A stretch of DNA of 27,264 bases from a virus (Duplodnaviria > Heunggongvirae > Uroviricota > Caudoviricetes): positions 1-27,264 of IMG/VR virus record IMGVR_UViG_2690316318_000023; one strand, given 5' to 3'. A program made the translations under genes and the position numbers. The notes below the pieces were generated by a model that worked only from the letters and a program-made list of their open reading frames with translations, did not search any database and was not told the DNA's origin. Each line of letters starts with the position of its first letter. The first letter of the stretch is position 1. This document shows, piece by piece, positions 312-16,438 of the stretch.

Positions 312-357
312 AAAAGGTGTTGGTTCAGTTGGTTCAGTTGGTTCAATTTGTAAAGAG
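312..357. repeat. Left copy of a 46-bp perfect inverted repeat; contains tandem GGTTCAGTT/TTGGTTCA iterons (crr-like)
   Basis: Read directly: aaaaggtgttggttcagttggttcagttggttcaatttgtaaagag is the exact reverse complement of 7776-7821. Further GAACCAAC copies lie at about 391-420. Confidence 0.85.
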
Positions 358-769
358 CGTTGTTTTTATTGTGTTTTTTCTAAAATATTGAACCAACATC
401 AACTCATTTTGAACCAACAAAAAGTGTCCGTGAACTAACACTCTGTCAAATAGTCACTACATATATTAACGGTGAAGACTAAATCCGCCAGCAAATAGCT
501 TATATAGCACCGCTTTATGCCGCAGTTATGCTGGAACAGTAATCATTTCACAGAACCGCCTAACTACTATATGGCACCTGCTAAAAAGCACATCAGCCTA
601 GTCAGTTGATCGGTGCATGGATATCCTAACAATTCAACTATATAACGTGATCTCCCATGTCGATCTACTGTCATGCAATGATTAACAAACACATAGACAC
701 ATCTGCTTGGCGCATTGATTAATCACTGATCATCCATCAGGATATGCGAACCACCGTCACCAGGTTAGG

Positions 770-3505: not shown

Positions 3506-5611
3506 TTATTGAGCTTCTTTTTGTGATGCCTGTGCGACTCTGGTGAGCGATTGTGTGACCGTACTGATCGCTCTGTCATATGCTGTGCTACCTTTTGGCG
3601 TATTTGCCAGACGTAACAAGGCATTTCGTATAACAGGGCTTTCGTATGCCTTCGCTGCTCCGCCTACGGCACCAGCAGCAGGAACAACAAACGCAGCCGT
3701 TTTTAGCATCCCCGCTAATACTGCTGCGTTTATGATGCCACCACCAACTAACAATCCATAAAGCTGCTGACCATTTAAGTTTTGAACGTTCGCTTTTGCC
3801 GCGTGTCTTGTATCGTTGAGGTATTTAATAACGCCGTCCAGTTCCTTTCCATGTACGCCTTTAAAGAAAGTTGCTGATTGCTTCCTGTTCCGGTGTAACG
3901 CATTAATAAACTTCTCAACACTGATATTTCCAGACGGATCAGTCGCCTTATCTACAGCATTCTGAACTATGGCTGCTCGTGCGTTTTGCCTACCATTGTC
4001 ATCCAGAAGCCTGTAAAGCTGAGAACGTTCTGATGGGCTTTGGCTAAAAACGAGTTTTGTTACATCCTCAGGCGTGGCCTTGCCGCTGGCTATTGCCTTT
4101 TGAACGCGCGTTCTTCCCATCATGTCATTGAATTTAGACCATGAGCGATCAACCCTTGCCATATTAATGGCTTCGTCTGCTCCAAGATTTTTGGCTACGG
4201 CTTTTTTCATATCCGCCGTATATGCCTTGTAGATAATATCGCTGGCTTTCTGGAGCGTATCTTTATCAACAGTGTCAGATGACGCCATAAATCGCTTTCG
4301 AAGATCGGTTCTGTTTTCCCTCGCCAGACGCAGGTCATTTGGTCCGCTGGTGATATCGTCTTTAAATTGCTGCAAGACTTTTACCGCGGCTCTATCCTGA
4401 GATTTGCCCGGGCGGCTTAACACGGCAATCTGATTGTCGATAGCTTTTACCGTGTTTGAGAGATCGACAGGGGTATCCCCCATAGCGTCAATTATGCGGT
4501 TATATCGCTTTCCTGCTGCCTCAATGAATTTTTGTTGCCCTTTAGTCGCAGATTCATAAAGCTGTTTATCAGAAATGCCACCCAGACCATCGCTAAATGT
4601 TCTGACTAAATTTTCTCGTGCTTGTTGTTGATTCAGCCGATTCTTACCGGTTCCAAAAAAAGGAACTCTTTCGCCTAATGTCTGAGCCTGACTCTGCATA
4701 AAGGTTTTATCTTTCAGCATGTCACTGGTCATTAACGGCAGATTTCTTTCCGATGCAAAGTCGACAGCAGCCTTTGCTTCAGGCGACATATCACCACGAA
4801 CAGCCCTCGAAACCGCACTCGCTGTATTTTCCAGCCCCTTACCAATACCACCAATGCCAGCAGAAATTACCGTTTGTAACGGATCAATATCTTCTCCACC
4901 AGCAAGGCTGGTGGCTCCCTGTAGTGCTAAATCTGTAGCTGCTGATTTTCCTATGGCACCAAGCACCGTTCCAGCCCTGCCCGCTGGTGTAAACGCCAAC
5001 GCATTAGCAAGAAACGAGGTCAGGTCTTGCGGTGATAAACCCGGCTTGTTCAGGGCATAATCACCTGATGGCAGAGAAACGATAGTATTCCCCTTCTCAT
5101 CCTGCCTTAATGTCGCCCCCATTCCCTGAAGAATCTTTTCCTGAGACGCGTCAGAGCCGAAAAGTTGAGACCATCCAGCCTTTAGGGCATCCATGCTTAG
5201 TGAGTTCAATTCTGGGGCAGAGGCGACATTTTGCAGTCTCTCCATCTCTGGAGTCATTCGGCTTTCGCCTGTTATAGCATCGCGCATCGCAGCCCCAAGA
5301 CTGGCTCCCTGTTCTGCTGAACGCTCAAGCCCCTCTCTTTGCTGAGTAGCTAACTTTGCATACCCTGACGCAAGAGAATTATCAGATGATGTATGTTGAA
5401 TATTTTGAGTTGCTGATTGGGATCGGTCTATTTCATTCGTTGATGGTAGTGGATAGGCAGCATAAAAAGCCTGCTTAGCCTGCTCTACACTTTCTCCGGC
5501 TTGCGGGGCCACGACTTCATTGAAGTATTGCTCCTGAGCCTGCGCTTTTTGTTCTGGTGCTAACGCCTGATACTGTGGAGAGGCGATAACATCTTTCCAT
5601 GCTTTAGCCAT
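3506..5611 (-). CDS. Hypothetical protein (701 aa), distal gene of the three-gene cargo operon; Ala/Gln/Ser-rich with a C-terminal hydrophobic Gly/Ala-rich segment
   Basis: ATG at 5611-5609 overlaps the upstream stop (TAATG) and is preceded by GGGGTGA. No Walker A or nuclease motif seen by eye. C-terminal LLVGGGIINAAVLAGMLKTAAFVVPAAGAVGGAA looks membrane-associating. Confidence 0.8.
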   Translation of the reverse strand: MAKAWKDVIASPQYQALAPEQKAQAQEQYFNEVVAPQAGESVEQAKQAFYAAYPLPSTNEIDRSQSATQNIQHTSSDNSLASGYAKLATQQREGLERSAEQGASLGAAMRDAITGESRMTPEMERLQNVASAPELNSLSMDALKAGWSQLFGSDASQEKILQGMGATLRQDEKGNTIVSLPSGDYALNKPGLSPQDLTSFLANALAFTPAGRAGTVLGAIGKSAATDLALQGATSLAGGEDIDPLQTVISAGIGGIGKGLENTASAVSRAVRGDMSPEAKAAVDFASERNLPLMTSDMLKDKTFMQSQAQTLGERVPFFGTGKNRLNQQQARENLVRTFSDGLGGISDKQLYESATKGQQKFIEAAGKRYNRIIDAMGDTPVDLSNTVKAIDNQIAVLSRPGKSQDRAAVKVLQQFKDDITSGPNDLRLARENRTDLRKRFMASSDTVDKDTLQKASDIIYKAYTADMKKAVAKNLGADEAINMARVDRSWSKFNDMMGRTRVQKAIASGKATPEDVTKLVFSQSPSERSQLYRLLDDNGRQNARAAIVQNAVDKATDPSGNISVEKFINALHRNRKQSATFFKGVHGKELDGVIKYLNDTRHAAKANVQNLNGQQLYGLLVGGGIINAAVLAGMLKTAAFVVPAAGAVGGAAKAYESPVIRNALLRLANTPKGSTAYDRAISTVTQSLTRVAQASQKEAQ

Positions 5612-7077
5612 TAATCACCCCATAGTGAAGAAAAGTTACTGCTGGCTGCTGGCTGTGATACCTGCTCAGATTGCGGCAATGTCTGCGACGAAGAAGCAGT
5701 TCCTCTGTCAACTGCTGAAATAACCCGCAAAGCATCATAAGTTCGACCAGAAGCAGCTTTCAGCGAATTGAACTGGTTTTCCATCTTCCGGCGCTTGGTA
5801 TCAATGGTTTTTGTGGAATCACCAGGCTGAGGGAAATACATTTGATAATATTTGGACATTTCAGCTGGTAGGATAGATGCCCCTGTTTCCTGACGGAGTA
5901 TTGCCATTATTGCGTCATTAGCATTAACAACGTATTGCTGCTCTGCTGGGCTGAGCGTTAAGTTAGCCAGCGTCCCATTACCCAAAGCATTATTAATGAT
6001 CGCCACTCGCTGTGGGCTAAGCTGGTCTTTCAGTGTATCTATTGAATCAAGAGCATCCCTAACCCTGTATGCAAATCCAGCAGCTTTTTTAGCCCCTTCT
6101 GGCGACTTTTCCATGATCTTTTGGGCTGTTGGCAAAGCTATTGGACGAAACCCATCTCCAGATATTGGCTGGTTTAGTTTTCCCTGCTCTTCACTTCCGT
6201 CTGTGTAGTATTTTGTGACAGTGCCATCATCGTTTTCTCTAACACTCATTAATTTTTTGGCGTTTGTATTAATTCCAGCCGCTGCCGCAAATGCCGCCGC
6301 CCCCTCTGGATCCGCCTTTAACATTTGCGCGTACTGATTGTAATTCTGCATTGCTGCTGTTGGTGCATATGCTGACGTTAACGCATTTGCTCGGCTAATA
6401 TCCTGCCCTCTCGCCTGAAGTGCTTCGCCAGCCTGATTGCTGCGGATTGTCTCTGCCAACTTGCCACGCTCAATATCCCGACCTTCCATTTGATCTTTGA
6501 TATCGAAATACTTCTCATGACCGAGAGAAAACAGCGCCAGATTACCTGCGAAATGCTGGAAGCCCTGCGGGTCATTAACCTGCATTTCAGCAATAGTTTC
6601 TGGAGGGATACCTAAACGACGCATCTCCTGCTCATTATCCATCATGAACCTGCCAAATGCGCCCTGACCAAGCGATGAGGCTACCTGTGCTTTGAGCGCC
6701 AGATTGCCATAATCATCCCTTTGAGCATCATCGACATAACTCATCCCTTTACGGACTTCCTCAAACTCTTCTGGGAATGCTGTAATAAGATTACGCATCT
6801 GCTCCCTGTCACCGGACGCATAAGCATCTGCATAACCTTTCTGGAATGCCGCTTTACGCTCCTGCTGTTGCTGCTGCTTATAAATATCAGCAACGCCAGC
6901 CAGACCACGAAGACCTGTCAGAGCAACGTTATTTGCACCTGAGCGAGCCAGTTCATTGTTTTCGCGGATCAGACCAAGCGTTGCGTTAATGTCGCTTGCC
7001 TTTGGCGCATTCTCGTTTTGCGCACCAATGCCAGCCAGAAAACCACCAGAATTAATACCCTGTTGCCACGTAGCCAT
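5611..7077 (-). CDS. Hypothetical protein (about 488 aa from ATG 7077; ORF open to GTG 7089), middle gene of the three-gene cargo operon
   Basis: Long ORF, translationally coupled to the 701-aa gene. Gln/Ala-rich (QQQQQERKAAFQ), no recognisable enzymatic motif. Confidence 0.8.
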   Translation of the reverse strand: MATWQQGINSGGFLAGIGAQNENAPKASDINATLGLIRENNELARSGANNVALTGLRGLAGVADIYKQQQQQERKAAFQKGYADAYASGDREQMRNLITAFPEEFEEVRKGMSYVDDAQRDDYGNLALKAQVASSLGQGAFGRFMMDNEQEMRRLGIPPETIAEMQVNDPQGFQHFAGNLALFSLGHEKYFDIKDQMEGRDIERGKLAETIRSNQAGEALQARGQDISRANALTSAYAPTAAMQNYNQYAQMLKADPEGAAAFAAAAGINTNAKKLMSVRENDDGTVTKYYTDGSEEQGKLNQPISGDGFRPIALPTAQKIMEKSPEGAKKAAGFAYRVRDALDSIDTLKDQLSPQRVAIINNALGNGTLANLTLSPAEQQYVVNANDAIMAILRQETGASILPAEMSKYYQMYFPQPGDSTKTIDTKRRKMENQFNSLKAASGRTYDALRVISAVDRGTASSSQTLPQSEQVSQPAASSNFSSLWGD

Positions 7078-7081
7078 TGAT

Positions 7082-7255
7082 TTACCCACGTCCAGTTAAA
7101 GTGTAAGCCAGCGCCTTATCCATTAATCCCCGAGCAATTTCATGGATCGTTGGCGCAACTCCTACCTCTGATTTTTTACGCTGCTCCTCCTGAATTTTCT
7201 TTATCGCTTCCATTTGCTTCTCACTTATCAATACTGGCTTTACTGAAATAGCCAT
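7082..7255 (-). CDS. Small hypothetical protein (57 aa), first gene of the three-gene cargo operon; possible small DNA-binding or regulatory protein
   Basis: ATG at 7255 preceded by AAGGGGG (4-5 nt spacer); its stop lies 2 nt before the next gene's ATG. Translation: MAISVKPVLISEKQMEAIKKIQEEQRKKSEVGVAPTIHEIARGLMDKALAYTLTGRG. Confidence 0.5.
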   Translation of the reverse strand: MAISVKPVLISEKQMEAIKKIQEEQRKKSEVGVAPTIHEIARGLMDKALAYTLTGRG

Positions 7256-7288
7256 AACGCCCCCTTAGAACTGTATAAAACAACAGTC

Positions 7289-7294
7289 ATTATA
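7289..7294 (-). promoter_or_regulatory. Candidate -10 hexamer (TATAAT on the minus strand) for the three-gene cargo operon
   Basis: Perfect TATAAT about 35 nt upstream of the 57-aa ORF start. No good -35 at 17-bp spacing, so it may be activator-dependent. Confidence 0.3.
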
Positions 7295-7350
7295 GTTTCA
7301 TAAAACGCAACATTCATCATTGTGATTGCAAAATATGAAACAAATAGCAC

Positions 7351-7383
7351 AAAAAAATGCCACCGCTCAGTAGCTGGTGGCAT
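7351..7383 (-). terminator. Rho-independent terminator (minus strand) downstream of the primase/iteron region, insulating the cargo operon
   Basis: Hairpin ATGCCACC(GCTcagtAGC, T bulge)GGTGGCAT with 8+3 bp stem; on the minus strand it is followed by a 7-nt U-run (plus-strand A-run 7351-7357). Confidence 0.55.
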
Positions 7384-7577
7384 CGTTCTGTGTGTCAGGT
7401 TTTGACAGGTTTTTTATGGACTCTAAAAACTATATTTATGGTGTCGCATTACTCTTCACGGCAGGCGCTTTTCAGTTCTGCCCTTGCTTCTGGCTCCATT
7501 GGTAATTTGATTCGCGATCAGCTATGCGGATGGTTTGCTGAACAGGCATAACAACTTCTCAGGGGCTGTTTTCTGAA

Positions 7578-7653
7578 CTACGAAAATTTCGTAGTGCTCA
7601 CTTTCAAAAACGTCACGCCCTTGTACACAGGATTTTACGAAAGTCTCGTAAAA
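7578..7653. promoter_or_regulatory. Two related palindromes (CTACGAAA-a-TTTCGTAG at 7578-7594; TTTTACGA-agtc-TCGTAAAA at 7634-7653), operator-like
   Basis: Both read directly; they share a TACGA/TCGTA inverted core. Located between the ori-like iterons and the terminator. Confidence 0.3.
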
Positions 7654-7689
7654 CACTCTCTGATGCCAGCCAGGTGTTGTGCGCATCAA

Positions 7690-7821
7690 TTCAGTCACAT
7701 TGTGTTGGTTCAAAATACCGTGTTGTTGGTTCGGTGTTGGTTCAATAAAAAGAATAAAATCCTTACAAAACAATACTCTTTACAAATTGAACCAACTGAA
7801 CCAACTGAACCAACACCTTTT
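7690..7821. repeat. Iteron array immediately downstream of the primase gene (ori-like); includes the right copy of the 46-bp perfect inverted repeat (7776-7821)
   Basis: Multiple TTGGTTCA/GAACCAAC copies. 7776-7821 (ctctttacaaattgaaccaactgaaccaactgaaccaacacctttt) is the exact reverse complement of 312-357. Confidence 0.8.
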
Positions 7822-7839
7822 CTACGCACATGAAGAAGC

Positions 7840-10596
7840 TCATTCTTCGGATGAGTTATAATCTCCTGGCTGGTAATTGAGTACATAAACGTTTATTTGT
7901 CGTCCCTGAATACGTGGTGATTTTCTTTGGTATCCACGACCGCTGTTTGGTGGGGTTAGCATCCCGGCTTTTTTCAACACTTCAGCAAACTGTTTTGCGT
8001 TGAAACCACATGCGATCTCCTTTTCAAATGTGGCCGGGAATGTGTAGAAAATCATTGGGCTTTCGTCATGTTCTCCACGCTGACGGTATCCGGCTAAATC
8101 TTTGATGGGCAAATCTGCCGGGCTGTATGGAAATGGTGCAAAACGGCTAAGCCCATAGGCATTAAGAAATGCCTCCGTTTGTTCAATAATCTGCTGATGC
8201 TCTTTGTTACCTGTGCCGAACTCGCGCAACCATGCGTTATAGCTGTGCTGTATCGCATCACGGCATGTCTGAGCATCCCAGCCTGTTACAACCTCGCCTA
8301 ACAGCAATGCGGCCTCCAGAATGGCAAATCGCGCGGCTACACGGTGAACCTGCTCACCATAATCGGATGGGATCAGGCTTCTCCATCTGCTTTCGCAGTC
8401 ACGAACAGTTTTAATAGCCTGTTGCTGGTGGTCTGCCAGCCATTTAATCCACTCACGCCCGGCTGCGCCGTGGTGATGCTGGTAAGCGTCTTTCAGTGCG
8501 TCTGCGTGCTGTTTTCCGTTCTGGTAATCGTGAAAGCGTACTGCTTTACTCAACGGAATATTCAGCAGTCGCACCAGTTGCCCGGCTTTGGTTTTTCGCC
8601 CGGAAGTAGCGATAAATGTTTCTAAATCCATTTCTCCGGTGCTGATTGCCACTGTACGCCAGCGTTTTAGATCCCGGTTTCCACCATCTTTAGCGCCTTG
8701 CAGTTTCCCTACACCGTTAAATAACGCATAGGCAGACTGTGAAACACTGACAGGATCAGCGCCCTGACCAACTTCATCAAGCGGCATTAATCCGTCATTG
8801 TGGGCGGCGGCTTCATTTGCCAGCCCCAGCGCGGTTCCGTACCACGTCAGCCGCAGTAAATCAGGGTTGCCGTATAAGCTGCTCGCCACGTTTGCCGTGG
8901 TGGTCTTACCTGCGCTCGACTGCTCATAGAAATGAATACCGAACCCGTCAGCACCCACCAGCCCAATCAATGGCGCTGCCAGTGCTGCGCCGATCCCGGT
9001 CATCATTGAATAGTTACCAAAGGCCAGACGCGCCACGTTATCACGCCAGCTTTTCGCGCTCCCTGAGACGGTATATCCGGCTGCGGCTGAGCTTCTCCCG
9101 CTGAACAGCACAGGATTTTCAGGTGTTCCGATGATTTCCCCATCAGACATGATGTACGCTCCGCATTGCCAGCCAGTGGCATGAGCAACACGCCACAATT
9201 CACGAGAGCCACTGCGTTGTAGCCAGTCTGCCAGTATTGCTCTGAGGCTGCTTTTGGTCGTGACATTTACCCCACCAGCTTTAAGTGTGCGCCATCCTTC
9301 ACGTTCACCAATATCAGCCAGTGGAATGGCAGCGGTTGTCGGCGTTTCAGAACCAAACGACAGCCAGCGAAGAATGAGATACTGGTCTTTATCGTCTCTG
9401 CCAGTACCGATAACGCTTAAAGGAGAACATAACCAGCTTTCGTTATTGATGATTTCTCCACTCTGGCTGTCAGCTCTCGGAGATACCCAATAAATACCAT
9501 CCTCGCGGCTTTCTATTCTTGGTTTCAGTGGGTCGGTATCCATAACCTTAAAATCGCTTCCCTCAATGGTCTGTGGCTCCTGTTTCACGCCATTACCCTG
9601 TGGTTGGTACATTGACTTATTGAACGCTTCTGTGGCGCATTTAATGCCGTGTTTTTGGTGGTAATCATTCCAGTCTGCTTTGTGATCTGTCGGGGGTAAT
9701 GCCACCCATCCAGAAACAGATAAAGCTGCTTTTTCTGCTGCTATTCTCCCCGTGTTTTGTCTTCCTTCGCTGTGGTCGTTATCCGCAGCAATGATGATTT
9801 GTGCTGAAGGAAATTTATCCCGCAGTACCTGGGCGACATATAACAGGTTCCCGGCATCAATCGCCGCCACTGTCAGCGCTTCTGAACGAATTAAATGGGC
9901 AGATAATGCCGTTGCCAGCCCTTCTGCGATTAAGATGCTCTGTGTTGTTTCTGGTGCGTTTATGGCGTGATATGCCCCTCGCTTTGCTGAACCTGTCAGG
10001 AGTCTTTTTTCACCATGTGAGGTAATAGTCTGTGCTGCTGTGACTGCGCCGGATTTATCCACCAGCGCCAGCAACAGAGATCCATCGGGCAACACGGGGA
10101 ATGTAAAATCACCTACCCCTTTCGCAACCAGATAATCAGATTTGCCGTTTACAGCCTTTCTGCGCATGTCATCAAACTGACGGGAAAACGTATCCCGTCT
10201 TTGTTGTTCGTCCTTCTCTGCCCTTTTCAGGCGCTCCTGTTCGCGTCGCTGGCGCTCGGTTTCCAGTTGTTCCCGTTTCTGGCTGGTGGCTTCTGGTGTT
10301 TCCGTTGTCCGGTAATCAATACCCAGAACATCAGCGGCAAGAAGCGCCGCCTCTGTTGTGTCGCAGTTATTTACGCGTTTAATTAAATCCAGCCCATCAC
10401 CAGCGCCGCACTGATTACAGATGAAGCTACCGCGCCCGTTGTCATCGAACCGGAATCGATCTTTGCCCCCACATGCAGGGCAGGGAGCATGACGGCGCGG
10501 AGAGTCAGGGACATTTATGTTCAGGCAGCCCAGCACATGAGGCCAGTTGTTTTCAGACGCACTGATAACCTGACGGATAAGATCAATGTTTCGCAT
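7840..10596 (-). CDS. P4 alpha-like DNA primase/helicase (918 aa): N-terminal zinc-ribbon, TOPRIM, C-terminal P-loop NTPase
   Basis: CPACGG...CNQCG zinc-binding motif near the N-terminus; TOPRIM-like IIIAADNDHSEG; P-loop-like SSAGKTT. ATG preceded by GGGGG Shine-Dalgarno. Confidence 0.9.
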   Translation of the reverse strand: MRNIDLIRQVISASENNWPHVLGCLNINVPDSPRRHAPCPACGGKDRFRFDDNGRGSFICNQCGAGDGLDLIKRVNNCDTTEAALLAADVLGIDYRTTETPEATSQKREQLETERQRREQERLKRAEKDEQQRRDTFSRQFDDMRRKAVNGKSDYLVAKGVGDFTFPVLPDGSLLLALVDKSGAVTAAQTITSHGEKRLLTGSAKRGAYHAINAPETTQSILIAEGLATALSAHLIRSEALTVAAIDAGNLLYVAQVLRDKFPSAQIIIAADNDHSEGRQNTGRIAAEKAALSVSGWVALPPTDHKADWNDYHQKHGIKCATEAFNKSMYQPQGNGVKQEPQTIEGSDFKVMDTDPLKPRIESREDGIYWVSPRADSQSGEIINNESWLCSPLSVIGTGRDDKDQYLILRWLSFGSETPTTAAIPLADIGEREGWRTLKAGGVNVTTKSSLRAILADWLQRSGSRELWRVAHATGWQCGAYIMSDGEIIGTPENPVLFSGRSSAAAGYTVSGSAKSWRDNVARLAFGNYSMMTGIGAALAAPLIGLVGADGFGIHFYEQSSAGKTTTANVASSLYGNPDLLRLTWYGTALGLANEAAAHNDGLMPLDEVGQGADPVSVSQSAYALFNGVGKLQGAKDGGNRDLKRWRTVAISTGEMDLETFIATSGRKTKAGQLVRLLNIPLSKAVRFHDYQNGKQHADALKDAYQHHHGAAGREWIKWLADHQQQAIKTVRDCESRWRSLIPSDYGEQVHRVAARFAILEAALLLGEVVTGWDAQTCRDAIQHSYNAWLREFGTGNKEHQQIIEQTEAFLNAYGLSRFAPFPYSPADLPIKDLAGYRQRGEHDESPMIFYTFPATFEKEIACGFNAKQFAEVLKKAGMLTPPNSGRGYQRKSPRIQGRQINVYVLNYQPGDYNSSEE

Positions 10597-15012: not shown

Positions 15013-16227
15013 TCATGCGTGTTTTTCAAACACCATATGCACCACATTTCCGCCATGCTCGAGAGAATCCATATAGTCGGCATACCATTGAAGCATCTCC
15101 CGCCTTCCATCCAGATATTGCGCATGGTTGTATGTGCCACGAATTGAGTTCTTATCAACGTGAGCGAGCTGCGTTTCTATCCACGCGGTGTTATAGCCCT
15201 GCTCATGCAAAATCGTACTCATAGTGTGCCGGAACCCATGACCAGTTACACGTCCAGCGTAGCCAATGCGCTTAAACACTTGGTTTATGCTGGCCTCACT
15301 CATTGTTTTCCTTGGATCATTGCGCCCGGGAAACATAAGAGGGTAATTGCCTGTTATTTCTCTAATCTTCCCAATAAGCGAAAGAGCCTGCTCAGACAAT
15401 GGCACAATATGAGGCCGCCGCATTTTCATACGTGAAGCGGGTATCTCCCAGAGAGCCTTGTTGAAATCAATTTCATCCCATAATGCGCCACGTAGTTCGC
15501 CAGTCCGCAAGCCTGTGATAATCAGTAGACGAGCCGCCATAACAACCAATGCGCTTCCTGAGTAACTGGACAATGCCTTGAAAAAATCAGGTAATTCTTT
15601 GGCTGTAAGGAAAGGGTAATGATTAGATTCATGGCCTTGCATCGCGCTAGTAAGGTCTGGTGCAGGGTTATACTCTGCGCGACCAGTGACTATTGCATAG
15701 CGGAAAACTTCCCCGCACCGCTGCCTCACTTTTTTGGCTTTTTCTGTAGCACCGCGCCCCTCGATGCGCCGCAGCACATTCAGAAGTTCAAGTGGTTTGA
15801 TTTCGGCGATTGGTTTTTTGCCAATGTAAGGGAACACATCTTTGTTGAAGGCTTCGAGGATGTCTGAAGCATAACCAGCAGACCATTTTTTTAATTTGCT
15901 GCTGTGCCACTCAAGGGCAATATCTTTGAAGGTGTTGTTTAACTGCGTTTCCCGGGCAATCTTTTCCTCTCGTTTCGCTTCCATCGGATCGATACCACCA
16001 GCGATACCTCTTTTCGCATCTTCACGTTTTGCCCGAGCATCGGCTAGAGTAACCTCAGGATACACACCTAGTGCCAATAGCTTCTCTTTACCAGCTACAC
16101 GATATTTAAGTCGCCAGTATTTACCTCCATTAGGTTTTACCAAGAGATACAAACCGCCACCATCGGCCAGCTTGTAAGCCTTCTCTTTTGGCTTGGCTGT
16201 GTCTATTTGACGGGCATTGAGTTTCAC
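15013..16227 (-). CDS. int: P4-type tyrosine site-specific integrase (404 aa)
   Basis: N-terminus MKLNARQIDTAKPKEKAYKLADGGGLYLLVKPNGGKYWRLKYR and C-terminal HGFRHT...LAH...Y catalytic region. GTG start with GGAGG upstream. Adjacent to the tRNA fragment. Confidence 0.95.
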   Translation of the reverse strand: MKLNARQIDTAKPKEKAYKLADGGGLYLLVKPNGGKYWRLKYRVAGKEKLLALGVYPEVTLADARAKREDAKRGIAGGIDPMEAKREEKIARETQLNNTFKDIALEWHSSKLKKWSAGYASDILEAFNKDVFPYIGKKPIAEIKPLELLNVLRRIEGRGATEKAKKVRQRCGEVFRYAIVTGRAEYNPAPDLTSAMQGHESNHYPFLTAKELPDFFKALSSYSGSALVVMAARLLIITGLRTGELRGALWDEIDFNKALWEIPASRMKMRRPHIVPLSEQALSLIGKIREITGNYPLMFPGRNDPRKTMSEASINQVFKRIGYAGRVTGHGFRHTMSTILHEQGYNTAWIETQLAHVDKNSIRGTYNHAQYLDGRREMLQWYADYMDSLEHGGNVVHMVFEKHA

Positions 16228-16291
16228 TTGGGGGTACCTCCACTAAACCGAACAGCAAATACCCCCATAAGTACCCCCATCTGACCGTAGA

Positions 16292-16375
16292 TTTTGAGGG
16301 ACTTTAGTAGACGTCAAAAGACGAACGGGGCTTTAATACGCGGATTATAAGGGGTTTTGAAAGACTTTAGTAGAC
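16292..16375. repeat. Pair of 21-bp direct repeats (TTTTGAnnGACTTTAGTAGAC) between int and the att core; candidate integrase arm-type sites
   Basis: Read directly at 16292-16312 and 16355-16375 (2 mismatches). Confidence 0.4.
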
Positions 16376-16392
16376 TTGGGGAGATGTTTGAA

Positions 16393-16438
16393 TGGTGCCG
16401 ATAATAGGAGTCGAACCTACGACCTTCGCATTACGAAT
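16393..16438 (-). pseudogene. tRNA-Thr 3' fragment (46 nt: anticodon loop through CCA end), att-core repeat beside the integrase; not an intact tRNA
   Basis: The minus strand reads ...TTCGTAATGCGAAGGTCGTAGGTTCGACTCCTATTATCGGCACCA (T-loop GGTTCGACTCC, acceptor stem, CCA), matching my recollection of E. coli thrW. The upstream sequence cannot form the 5' acceptor/D arm. Confidence 0.6.

Follow-up and report, generated by a model that had tools for sequence, protein, structure and literature searches.

Decayed Rha-like antirepressor gene fragments and a putative terminator boundary between the primase and cargo genes of a P4-related integrative element of Escherichia coli

The 27,264-nt stretch of DNA analyzed in this study (IMG/VR record IMGVR_UViG_2690316318_000023, hereafter the window) contains a P4-related integrative element of Escherichia coli, in which the primase gene and the cargo operon, both on the minus strand, are separated by a region carrying a strong hairpin and two palindromes, designated P1 and P2. 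A preliminary description of the region had regarded the palindromes as operator sites or as parts of a replication origin. The evidence presented here points instead to another account, which we consider probable: the region comprises a terminator boundary and a variable slot, and the slot retains remnants of two decayed Rha-like antirepressor genes, P1 and P2 being dyads that lay inside these genes. In this element the dyads would most likely be inert relics, whereas the dyad of intact phage genes is a selected nucleic-acid element. The coordinates of all features are collected in Table 1.

Gene relics around P1 and P2

The preliminary description had recognized two related palindromes with a TACGA/TCGTA core, and this was confirmed, although the coordinates given there miss one or two bases of the complete arms. 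The TACGA-N5-TCGTA arrangement was present exactly twice in the window, namely in P1 and P2, against an expectation of 0.01, and none of 100 shuffled sequences reached two occurrences; no further copy of P1 was detected in the window with up to 3 mismatches allowed. Read on the minus strand, P1 corresponds to the codons cAC TAC GAA ATT TTC GTA GTt (HYEIFVV) and P2 to TTT TAC GAG ACT TTC GTA AAA (FYETFVK), the latter lying 19 codons upstream in the frame of P1.

Both palindromes were found within gene relics, that is, segments that resemble part of an intact gene and have lost its start codon or reading frame. Three such relics abut one another in the slot (Table 1): an a2-type fragment around P2, an a1-type fragment around P1, and the tail of a gene for a 152-amino-acid (aa) protein. 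The a1-type fragment corresponded approximately to residues 49-88 of a 242-aa phage protein in tblastn comparisons with L006, L007, L008, and L009 (L-numbers designate the sequences compared), the match at the protein level running from KDELEGEHYEIFVVQK to VVMSIKQALRVAARES and requiring two frames. At the nucleotide level, 7506-7607 was 74% identical (blastn) to an internal part of the 242-aa gene in the immI region of the P22-like prophage L006; further matches were to the Klebsiella phages ZX1 and phiKp_30 ('anti-repressor'), with a weaker one to the Shewanella phage ZP9. The 19-mer of P1 itself recurs with 0 mismatches in three intact phage genes, those of L006, phiKp_30, and ZX1. P2 differs by one base from the dyad TTTTACGAAACTTTCGTAAAA of the sister subfamily 'GEFYETFVK' ('DELEGEFYETFVK...'), and approximately 30 nt past P2 also align, with indels, to the FYETFVKSHGTRAG-type gene. 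P1 would be the internal dyad of a gene of the 'EHYEIFVV' subfamily and P2 that of a gene of the 'EFYETFVK' subfamily, and the two palindromes would share their core, half-site spacing, and reading frame because both descend from the same position of two paralogous genes.

Comparison of related E. coli elements placed these relics in a slot between the iterons and the terminator (7436-7657), with homology breakpoints at approximately 7485/7505 and 7646/7657. On the terminator side, the shared flank extends from the 57-aa gene leading the cargo operon up to ~7485/7505, includes the putative -10 hexamer, the terminator, and approximately 100 nt upstream of the latter, and was kept even in elements with another primase (L002, L005) or cargo (peptidase M41 and others in L005; the DUF2824 family in L512-L518). 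On the iteron side, related elements have their sequence in common from ~7646/7657 onward. As for the content of the slot, in L004 the stretch 7506-7645 is replaced by a gene of 152 aa, and L005 has one of 93 aa; L002 retains the cassette of the window along with two extra genes and other iterons (CCTGTACCAC-type), and in L003 an IS3 element is inserted at 7487/7488. The slot genes of L004 and L005 both end in the conserved 7436-7485 DNA, each in a different frame, and this DNA is therefore not conserved for coding. These comparisons suggest that ~7436-7657 is a recombination-prone accessory slot, which holds intact small genes in sister elements and only the three abutting fragments here.

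Two short open reading frames (ORFs) overlapping the slot were considered and rejected as probably not genes. One, of 25 aa (7472..7549, minus strand; 37 aa in most other haplotypes), is a chimera spanning two relics, and site 7472 is polymorphic (T/C) among the haplotypes, giving a stop or a Trp codon. The other, the 29-aa hydrophobic ORF MDSKNYIYGVALLFTAGAFQFCPCFWLHW (7418-7507, plus strand), runs antisense to the slot, contains a stop in L004, and is truncated in L005; a perfect TTGACA lies ahead of it, but neither a -10 nor a Shine-Dalgarno sequence can be clearly recognized.

Selection on the dyad in intact Rha-like genes

The exact 19-mer ACTACGAAANTTTCGTAGT was found in at least 119 IMG/VR contigs, compared with a roughly estimated chance expectation of about 1, and most copies among the matches listed lie in ORFs of 230-290 aa with the motif DELEGE-h-YE-x-FVV. 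This P1-type family corresponds to PHROG 1726 ('anti-repressor') and is not detected by Pfam; over its entire length, its N-domain could be aligned to Phage_pRha domains (hhalign: E = 3.5e-5, probability 72%).

To avoid ascertainment bias, the family was sampled by means of an unrelated motif, MRESKxVR, in IMG/VR and in a genome set with a single representative of each species, which yielded 140 unique sequences (Pseudomonas, Acinetobacter, Acidovorax, Erwinia, Serratia, and others). The codons TAC GAA AnT TTC GTA were used in 96 of the 99 loci encoding YE[T/S/N/I]FV at the fixed position, where the genes' own codon usage predicts 0.38, and after clustering at 70% identity the dyad codons appeared in 14/14 clusters against 0.055 expected. 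The central codon was AnT regardless of the amino acid, GTA and ACT are rare in these genes, and the synonymous codons of the dyad were fixed even in GC-rich hosts. Moreover, compensatory variants keep the dyad and change the protein, as in YK.FVV (ACTACAAAA.TTTTGTAGT), YYGISVV (TACTACGGAATTTCCGTAGTA), HDEIFVM (CATGACGAAATTTTCGTCATG), and HYTKSVV. The outer pair was also shown to covary, the second Val being encoded by GTG in 6 of the 10 cluster representatives with His (CAC) and by GTA in 2 of the 3 with Tyr (TAC).

Comparable dyads were found in other branches of the family. In classical Phage_pRha genes ('...ERLF.KGLLRS.RKT...'), a dyad TTTTACGA-N5-TCGTAAAA occupies the homologous place and is read in another frame (cTT TTA CGA ... 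CGT AAA A, LLRS.RK), again with rare codons, and other Rha subfamilies have other covarying palindromes there, e.g., TTCCACCA-T-TGGTGGAA and its variants. The genome of phiKp_30 contains 4 palindromes with arms of at least 9 nt in 33.7 kb (shuffle mean, 0.77), and 3 of the 4 lie in the N-domain coding part of three Rha-like paralogues, with a distinct sequence in each. Perfect palindromes of 22-24 bp are located in phiKp_30 (L520) at 24352-24373 in the Rha gene, at 28337-28358 in the gene for a Roi-like 'DNA-binding protein', and at 31738-31761 in a 968-aa gene, the first two sitting where the wing region of the winged-helix domain is encoded. Some Rha subfamilies have no palindrome, and HK022 roi and P22 rha have no strong one at the equivalent site; the intragenic dyad is frequent in Rha-like genes and not universal. 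In short, the dyad occupies a homologous N-domain position and is under selection at the nucleic-acid level in the intact genes, not in the copies of the window. Searches of the literature gave no match to the dyad sequences and nothing relevant on Rha, antirepressors, and inverted repeats.

The pair adjoining the single central base was conserved in 121 of 139 sequences. Because a hairpin loop could not make use of that pair, a duplex-DNA site is favored over an RNA hairpin, and in intact genes the dyad would most likely be bound as a duplex by a dimeric protein, for which the winged-helix product of the gene itself is a plausible candidate. The paralogue-specific sequences of the dyads further suggest that each dyad would go with its own protein. 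It is likewise very improbable that P1 and P2 serve as hairpins at the RNA level, with a part in pausing, processing, or stability when transcription reads through from the primase gene. In the fold predicted for the minus-strand transcript both palindromes do come out as hairpins, and the inner mismatch of P2 is a G·U on that strand; however, no U-tract follows either palindrome, the central pair just mentioned is conserved in intact genes, G·U mismatches are in no clear excess over A·C, and no Rfam family was matched, searches at the gathering threshold and, over 7200-7900, at a permissive E-value giving nothing real in the region and two miRNA matches that reflect the inverted iterons.

Conservation of the palindromes among E. 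coli elements

Fifteen distinct E. coli haplotypes of 7256-7700, a small sample, were aligned. P1 contained 2 variable sites in 19 nt (7594 and 7595, at its edge) and P2 contained 1 in 21 nt (7639, in the core, in three haplotypes), as compared with 17 in 213 nt over 7488-7700, and the non-palindromic stretch 7500-7555 was invariant; P1 and P2 were not more conserved than their flanks, as expected of relics. Among the wider set of elements, the L002 lineage carries a mutated P2; L004, which shares the iterons, primase type, 57-aa gene, and terminator, has no P1 and only half of P2; and L005, which shares the 57-aa gene and terminator, lacks the palindrome cassette. P1 and P2 do not track iteron or primase type. 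The absence of excess conservation, the existence of cassette-free lineages, and this lack of tracking together argue against essential, origin, and shared-protein operator roles.

The preliminary description had proposed that the palindromes might be operators for AlpA, the PerC-like protein, or the 57-aa protein, acting on the primase or cargo units. Two related dyads with equal half-site spacing, 57 bp apart, would suit such a function, and so would the predicted topology of the 57-aa protein. A single-sequence AlphaFold model of this protein (pLDDT 77.6) showed an extended N-terminus and two helices, which is compatible with a ribbon-helix-helix fold, and no match to it was found by sequence in Pfam, PHROG, NCBIfam, or the PDB, or by Foldseek. 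Its gene (53 aa in some strains) is kept ahead of different cargos, namely ejection proteins, DUF2824, and peptidase M41, which makes a regulatory role at the cargo promoter plausible; nothing, however, ties the protein to P1 or P2. Between the palindromes and the cargo promoter region lie the terminator and approximately 300 bp, no sigma-70 promoter was found on either strand at or near 7577-7653, and none overlaps P1 or P2. In addition, sister elements that share the 57-aa gene, AlpA, and PerC do without the palindromes, L004 and L005 keeping the 57-aa gene and the terminator in their absence, and P1 and P2 occupy a replaceable slot and have a sequence inherited from phage genes. We thus regard operators for the element's own regulators as improbable.

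Even less can be said for the palindromes as auxiliary parts of the replication origin. P1 and P2 do adjoin the iteron cluster beside the primase gene, and the cassette again lies beside an iteron cluster in the L002 lineage; however, the iterons of L002 are of a different type (CCTGTACCAC) and belong to a different primase, L004 combines the same GTTGGTTC iterons and primase type with no P1 and half of P2, and the second iteron cluster of the window (319-418) has no such palindromes. The suggestion that the palindromes are origin parts is accordingly regarded as very unlikely.

Free-standing and relic copies of the dyad

Several observations weigh against regarding P1 and P2 as inert. The 15-nt core of P1 was invariant in the 15 haplotypes, though only about 1 change would be expected. 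Exact 19-mers were found just past the stop codons of unrelated antirepressor genes of the P22-Ant type (L072) and the ORF6N type (L117, L068), another free-standing 19-mer lies approximately 160 nt upstream of a Rha gene (L047), and further 19-mers occur in PerC-bearing elements with capsid-, portal-, and terminase-sized ORFs (L111, L085, L010, L040, L113). P22 (L522) has, between the ant terminator and gene 9, a non-coding remnant of some 100 nt from the centre of the gene; it translates as RLGNELEGETYKKIVGRKANKITSEKVVLSQK, which is 59% identical to L006, and its dyad GACCTACAA-aaaaa-TTGTAGGTC (16085-16107) keeps a 9-nt pairing through changes on both sides relative to the L006 type. The ~100-nt central piece with its palindrome also survives as a relic in further contigs, and in L091 dyads of the P1-like and P2-like kinds are again found together. 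That the piece was retained repeatedly is a hint that the dyad may act in the absence of its gene, and P1 and P2 might then be functional here; the repeated survival of the piece could equally reflect shared descent of one old relic. The P22 relic (L522, 16040-16178) is flanked by direct repeats of approximately 20 bp (AAAATTCACCGTAGCCA...), like a cassette boundary, and the P22 record annotates no feature there.

If these observations are taken at face value, P1 and P2 could be retained functional duplex sites for a Rha/Roi-type winged-helix protein of a helper phage, which the satellite, with these sites next to its iterons, would sense or titrate when a P22-like helper is active. We consider this possible and rather unlikely. 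It would be in keeping with the strong DNA-level selection on the dyad in intact genes, with the presence of three Rha-like paralogues in one phage, each with its own palindrome, and with the persistence of free-standing and relic copies in P22 and other phages beside antirepressor genes. Furthermore, P1 with 7 nt on either side is identical in the satellite and in the P22-like prophage, which are otherwise only 74% identical, the P22-like a1-type protein has the identical 19-mer in its own gene, and the P22-type ejection-protein cargo makes a P22-like helper plausible. Against it stand the lack of excess conservation of P1 and P2 among the 15 haplotypes, the mutated P2 of the L002 lineage, and the absence of the entire cassette from L004 and L005. 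Moreover, no second copy of the dyad was found within ±1.5-3 kb of 109 intact genes, hence there is no evidence of a regulon, and no external palindrome was found near family members without an internal one. The more general proposal, that many Rha/Roi-type genes hold a paralogue-specific palindrome bound by their product or a partner, that satellites and P22-like phages keep copies of it, and that P1 and P2 sense or decoy the Rha-like protein of the helper, is offered as a tentative one of low probability. Should P1 and P2 bind a protein at all, one of the Rha/Roi type from a helper phage would be the best candidate, rather than any regulator encoded by the element.

On the reading of P1 and P2 as internal dyads of decayed Rha-like genes, there is little point in pursuing them as operators for the 57-aa protein, AlpA, or PerC. 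The locus itself is ordinary. The wider point is the strongly selected, covarying dyad, read in two frames in two subfamilies, which deserves follow-up. If it were the proteins' own binding site, it would provide a handle on the poorly understood Rha/Roi family and a possible route by which satellites detect helper phages.

Terminator and start of the cargo operon

The strong hairpin with a U-run that had been proposed at 7351-7383 was borne out by folding, pattern scan, and conservation. Its folding energy was -26.2 kcal/mol (z = -5.66), with 0 of 200 shuffles equally stable, and the hairpin with its U7 was also picked up by a terminator pattern scan; as in intrinsic terminators, a stable GC-rich hairpin is directly followed by a U-run on the transcribed strand. 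The terminator was kept in every variant element compared (L002, L004, and L005 among them), including those with another primase or cargo, and its stem arms were invariant across the 15 haplotypes. Because it is kept in all variant elements, whatever their primase or cargo, the hairpin is plausibly the 3' end of the upstream transcription unit, and it would end transcription arriving from the primase gene and the slot.

The earlier idea that the cargo operon is transcribed independently was thus sustained in part: the terminator boundary is supported by sequence and conservation, whereas the cargo promoter assumed upstream of the operon was not recovered, a scan of the minus strand over 6800-8200 giving no sigma-70 promoter. 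A candidate -10 hexamer was read by eye (Table 1), and the cargo operon would start from its own signals, as far as can be judged from the DNA sequence. The terminator appears to be a real module boundary, with the cargo operon led by the conserved 57-aa gene as a separate unit.

Just upstream of the terminator on the minus strand lies a tandem 10-nt direct repeat, TGTCAGGTTT/TGACAGGTTT (7393-7412), within the approximately 100 nt that every variant element shares in spite of a lack of coding conservation. This repeat could be a protein-binding site.

Organization of the element

Table 1. Coordinates and characteristics of features in the 27,264-nt window
Feature	Position	Strand	Remarks
Integrative element, P4-related, E. 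coli		minus	order: int, AlpA, immunity region (C4/isrK RNAs), primase, iterons, slot, terminator, 57-aa-led cargo operon
P1, ACTACGAAAATTTCGTAGT	7577..7595		ACTACGAAA-A-TTTCGTAGT; perfect 9-nt arms, 1-nt centre
P2, TTTTACGAaagtcTCGTAAAA	7633..7653		TTTTACGA-aagtc-TCGTAAAA; 8-nt arms, 5-nt spacer
a2-type relic, 'FYETFVKSHGTRAG'-type Rha-like gene	7604..7653 (approximate)	minus	frame-breaking indels; local alignment to L343, L375, L399, L412
a1-type relic, antirepressor-like gene (PHROG 1726, Rha-related N-domain)	7506..7617	minus	frameshifted, ~110 nt, no start codon
Relic of 3' end of L004-type 152-aa slot gene	7436..7505	minus	in-frame TGA 7474-7472, elsewhere Trp or Arg codon
Intrinsic-terminator-like hairpin	7351..7383	minus	stem 7358-7364/7376-7382 and 7365-7367/7372-7374, loop 7368-7371, U7 7357-7351
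Candidate -10 hexamer TATAAT of cargo operon	7294-7289	minus	perfect match, read by eye; poor -35; invariant in 15 haplotypes
57-aa leader gene of cargo operon	7082..7255	minus	
P22 gp20-like injectosome protein	7089-5611	minus	
701-aa 'injection/DNA transfer' protein	5611-3506	minus	
Iteron cluster, GTTGGTTC	7704..7814		3 forward copies (7704-7743) and 3 reversed copies (7789-7814) around AT-rich spacer; adjoins primase gene
Second iteron cluster, same 8-mer GTTGGTTC	319..418		inverted arrangement, 2-3 copies per orientation, AT-rich spacer; beside PerC gene
Primase-helicase (zinc ribbon, Toprim, DUF927), 918 aa	7840..10596	minus	upstream transcription unit
C4-type antisense RNA	12415-12328	minus	Rfam above gathering score, 79.9 bits
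isrK	12555-12478	minus	Rfam above gathering score, 67.8 bits; beside C4 RNA in immunity region
AlpA-type regulator, AntA/B, DUF4222, Ash, and Icd-like genes	between integrase and immunity RNAs, in listed order	minus	
Integrase	16227-15013	minus	

The ori-like iterons that the preliminary description had placed downstream of the primase gene on the minus strand were recovered as six copies of GTTGGTTC at 7704-7814, and the window as a whole contains 13 copies compared with 0.65 expected. The two clusters are mirror images 7.3 kb apart that bracket the whole cargo region, an arrangement resembling an ori/crr pair, by analogy with P4. Sister elements of the L002 type, with a DUF5906-type primase, have another iteron (CCTGTACCAC / GGTGGTACAGG) in two clusters (8490-8600 and 9600-9720) and keep the GTTGGTTC cluster beside PerC, and thus carry iterons of two specificities in one element.

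The cargo at 3506-7255 on the minus strand encodes homologues of P22 ejection proteins (gp20-type Inj_translocase and gp16-type 'DNA transfer protein'), and the sister elements L512-L518 have a DUF2824 (gp14-like) gene after the small leader gene instead. The presence of ejection-protein genes on a satellite suggests hijacking of, or interference with, P22-like helpers.

The stretch 7256-7840 is present at least partly in approximately 570 of 5,426 complete E. coli genomes and mostly present in 328. No tRNA gene was found anywhere in the window. A near-identical element in strain MS1494 has a tRNA-Thr gene 166 nt past the integrase gene, and the DNA past the integrase gene here (16228-16500) matches a helix-turn-helix/acetyltransferase region; therefore, this copy seems to be placed in another context than the MS1494 copy. 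In the neighbouring region, Rfam matched IS009 above the gathering score (184.9 bits; 20911-21109, minus strand).

Comparison with known systems

Like enterobacterial Rho-independent terminators, the hairpin at 7351-7383 consists of a GC-rich stem-loop with seven U directly after it on the transcribed minus strand, positioned where a transcription unit ends. The terminator described here is putative and known from sequence; an A-rich stretch upstream lengthens its stem, and it looks unidirectional because the plus strand has no T-run.

The replication region shares several features with that of phage P4, in which ori and crr accompany the alpha primase-helicase: a P4-type primase gene adjoined by short iterons that lie in both orientations about an AT-rich spacer, another cluster kilobases away, and an immunity RNA of the C4/CI type. 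The two systems differ in the iteron, which is TGTTCACC in P4 and GTTGGTTC here, and in the primase, which is of the DUF927 type with 918 aa in this element; no sid, delta, or psu gene was seen, and P1 and P2 lie outside the ori/crr system.

The palindromes also invite comparison with the immI region of P22. The interval from the ant terminator to gene 9 likewise holds a non-coding relic of the same gene piece with a dyad of 9-nt arms, in a different context, namely upstream of the tailspike gene and flanked by direct repeats. The Arc/Mnt-type operators of immI resemble P1 and P2 in being short dyads of approximately 15-21 bp, and ribbon-helix-helix genes neighbour the intact antirepressor-like gene in P22-like prophages; however, the annotated operator sequences are unlike P1 and P2, and P1 and P2 overlap no promoter.

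Finally, Roi of phage HK022, a Rha/KilAC protein, reportedly bound a site in its own gene beside an IHF site. The present case differs in that roi has no strong palindrome at the equivalent place, that the genes of the window are only fragments, and that binding here is putative. As in that system, P1 and P2 would derive from dyads inside the N-terminal winged-helix coding part of Rha-related genes, and the paralogue-specific palindromes fit a self-recognition site.

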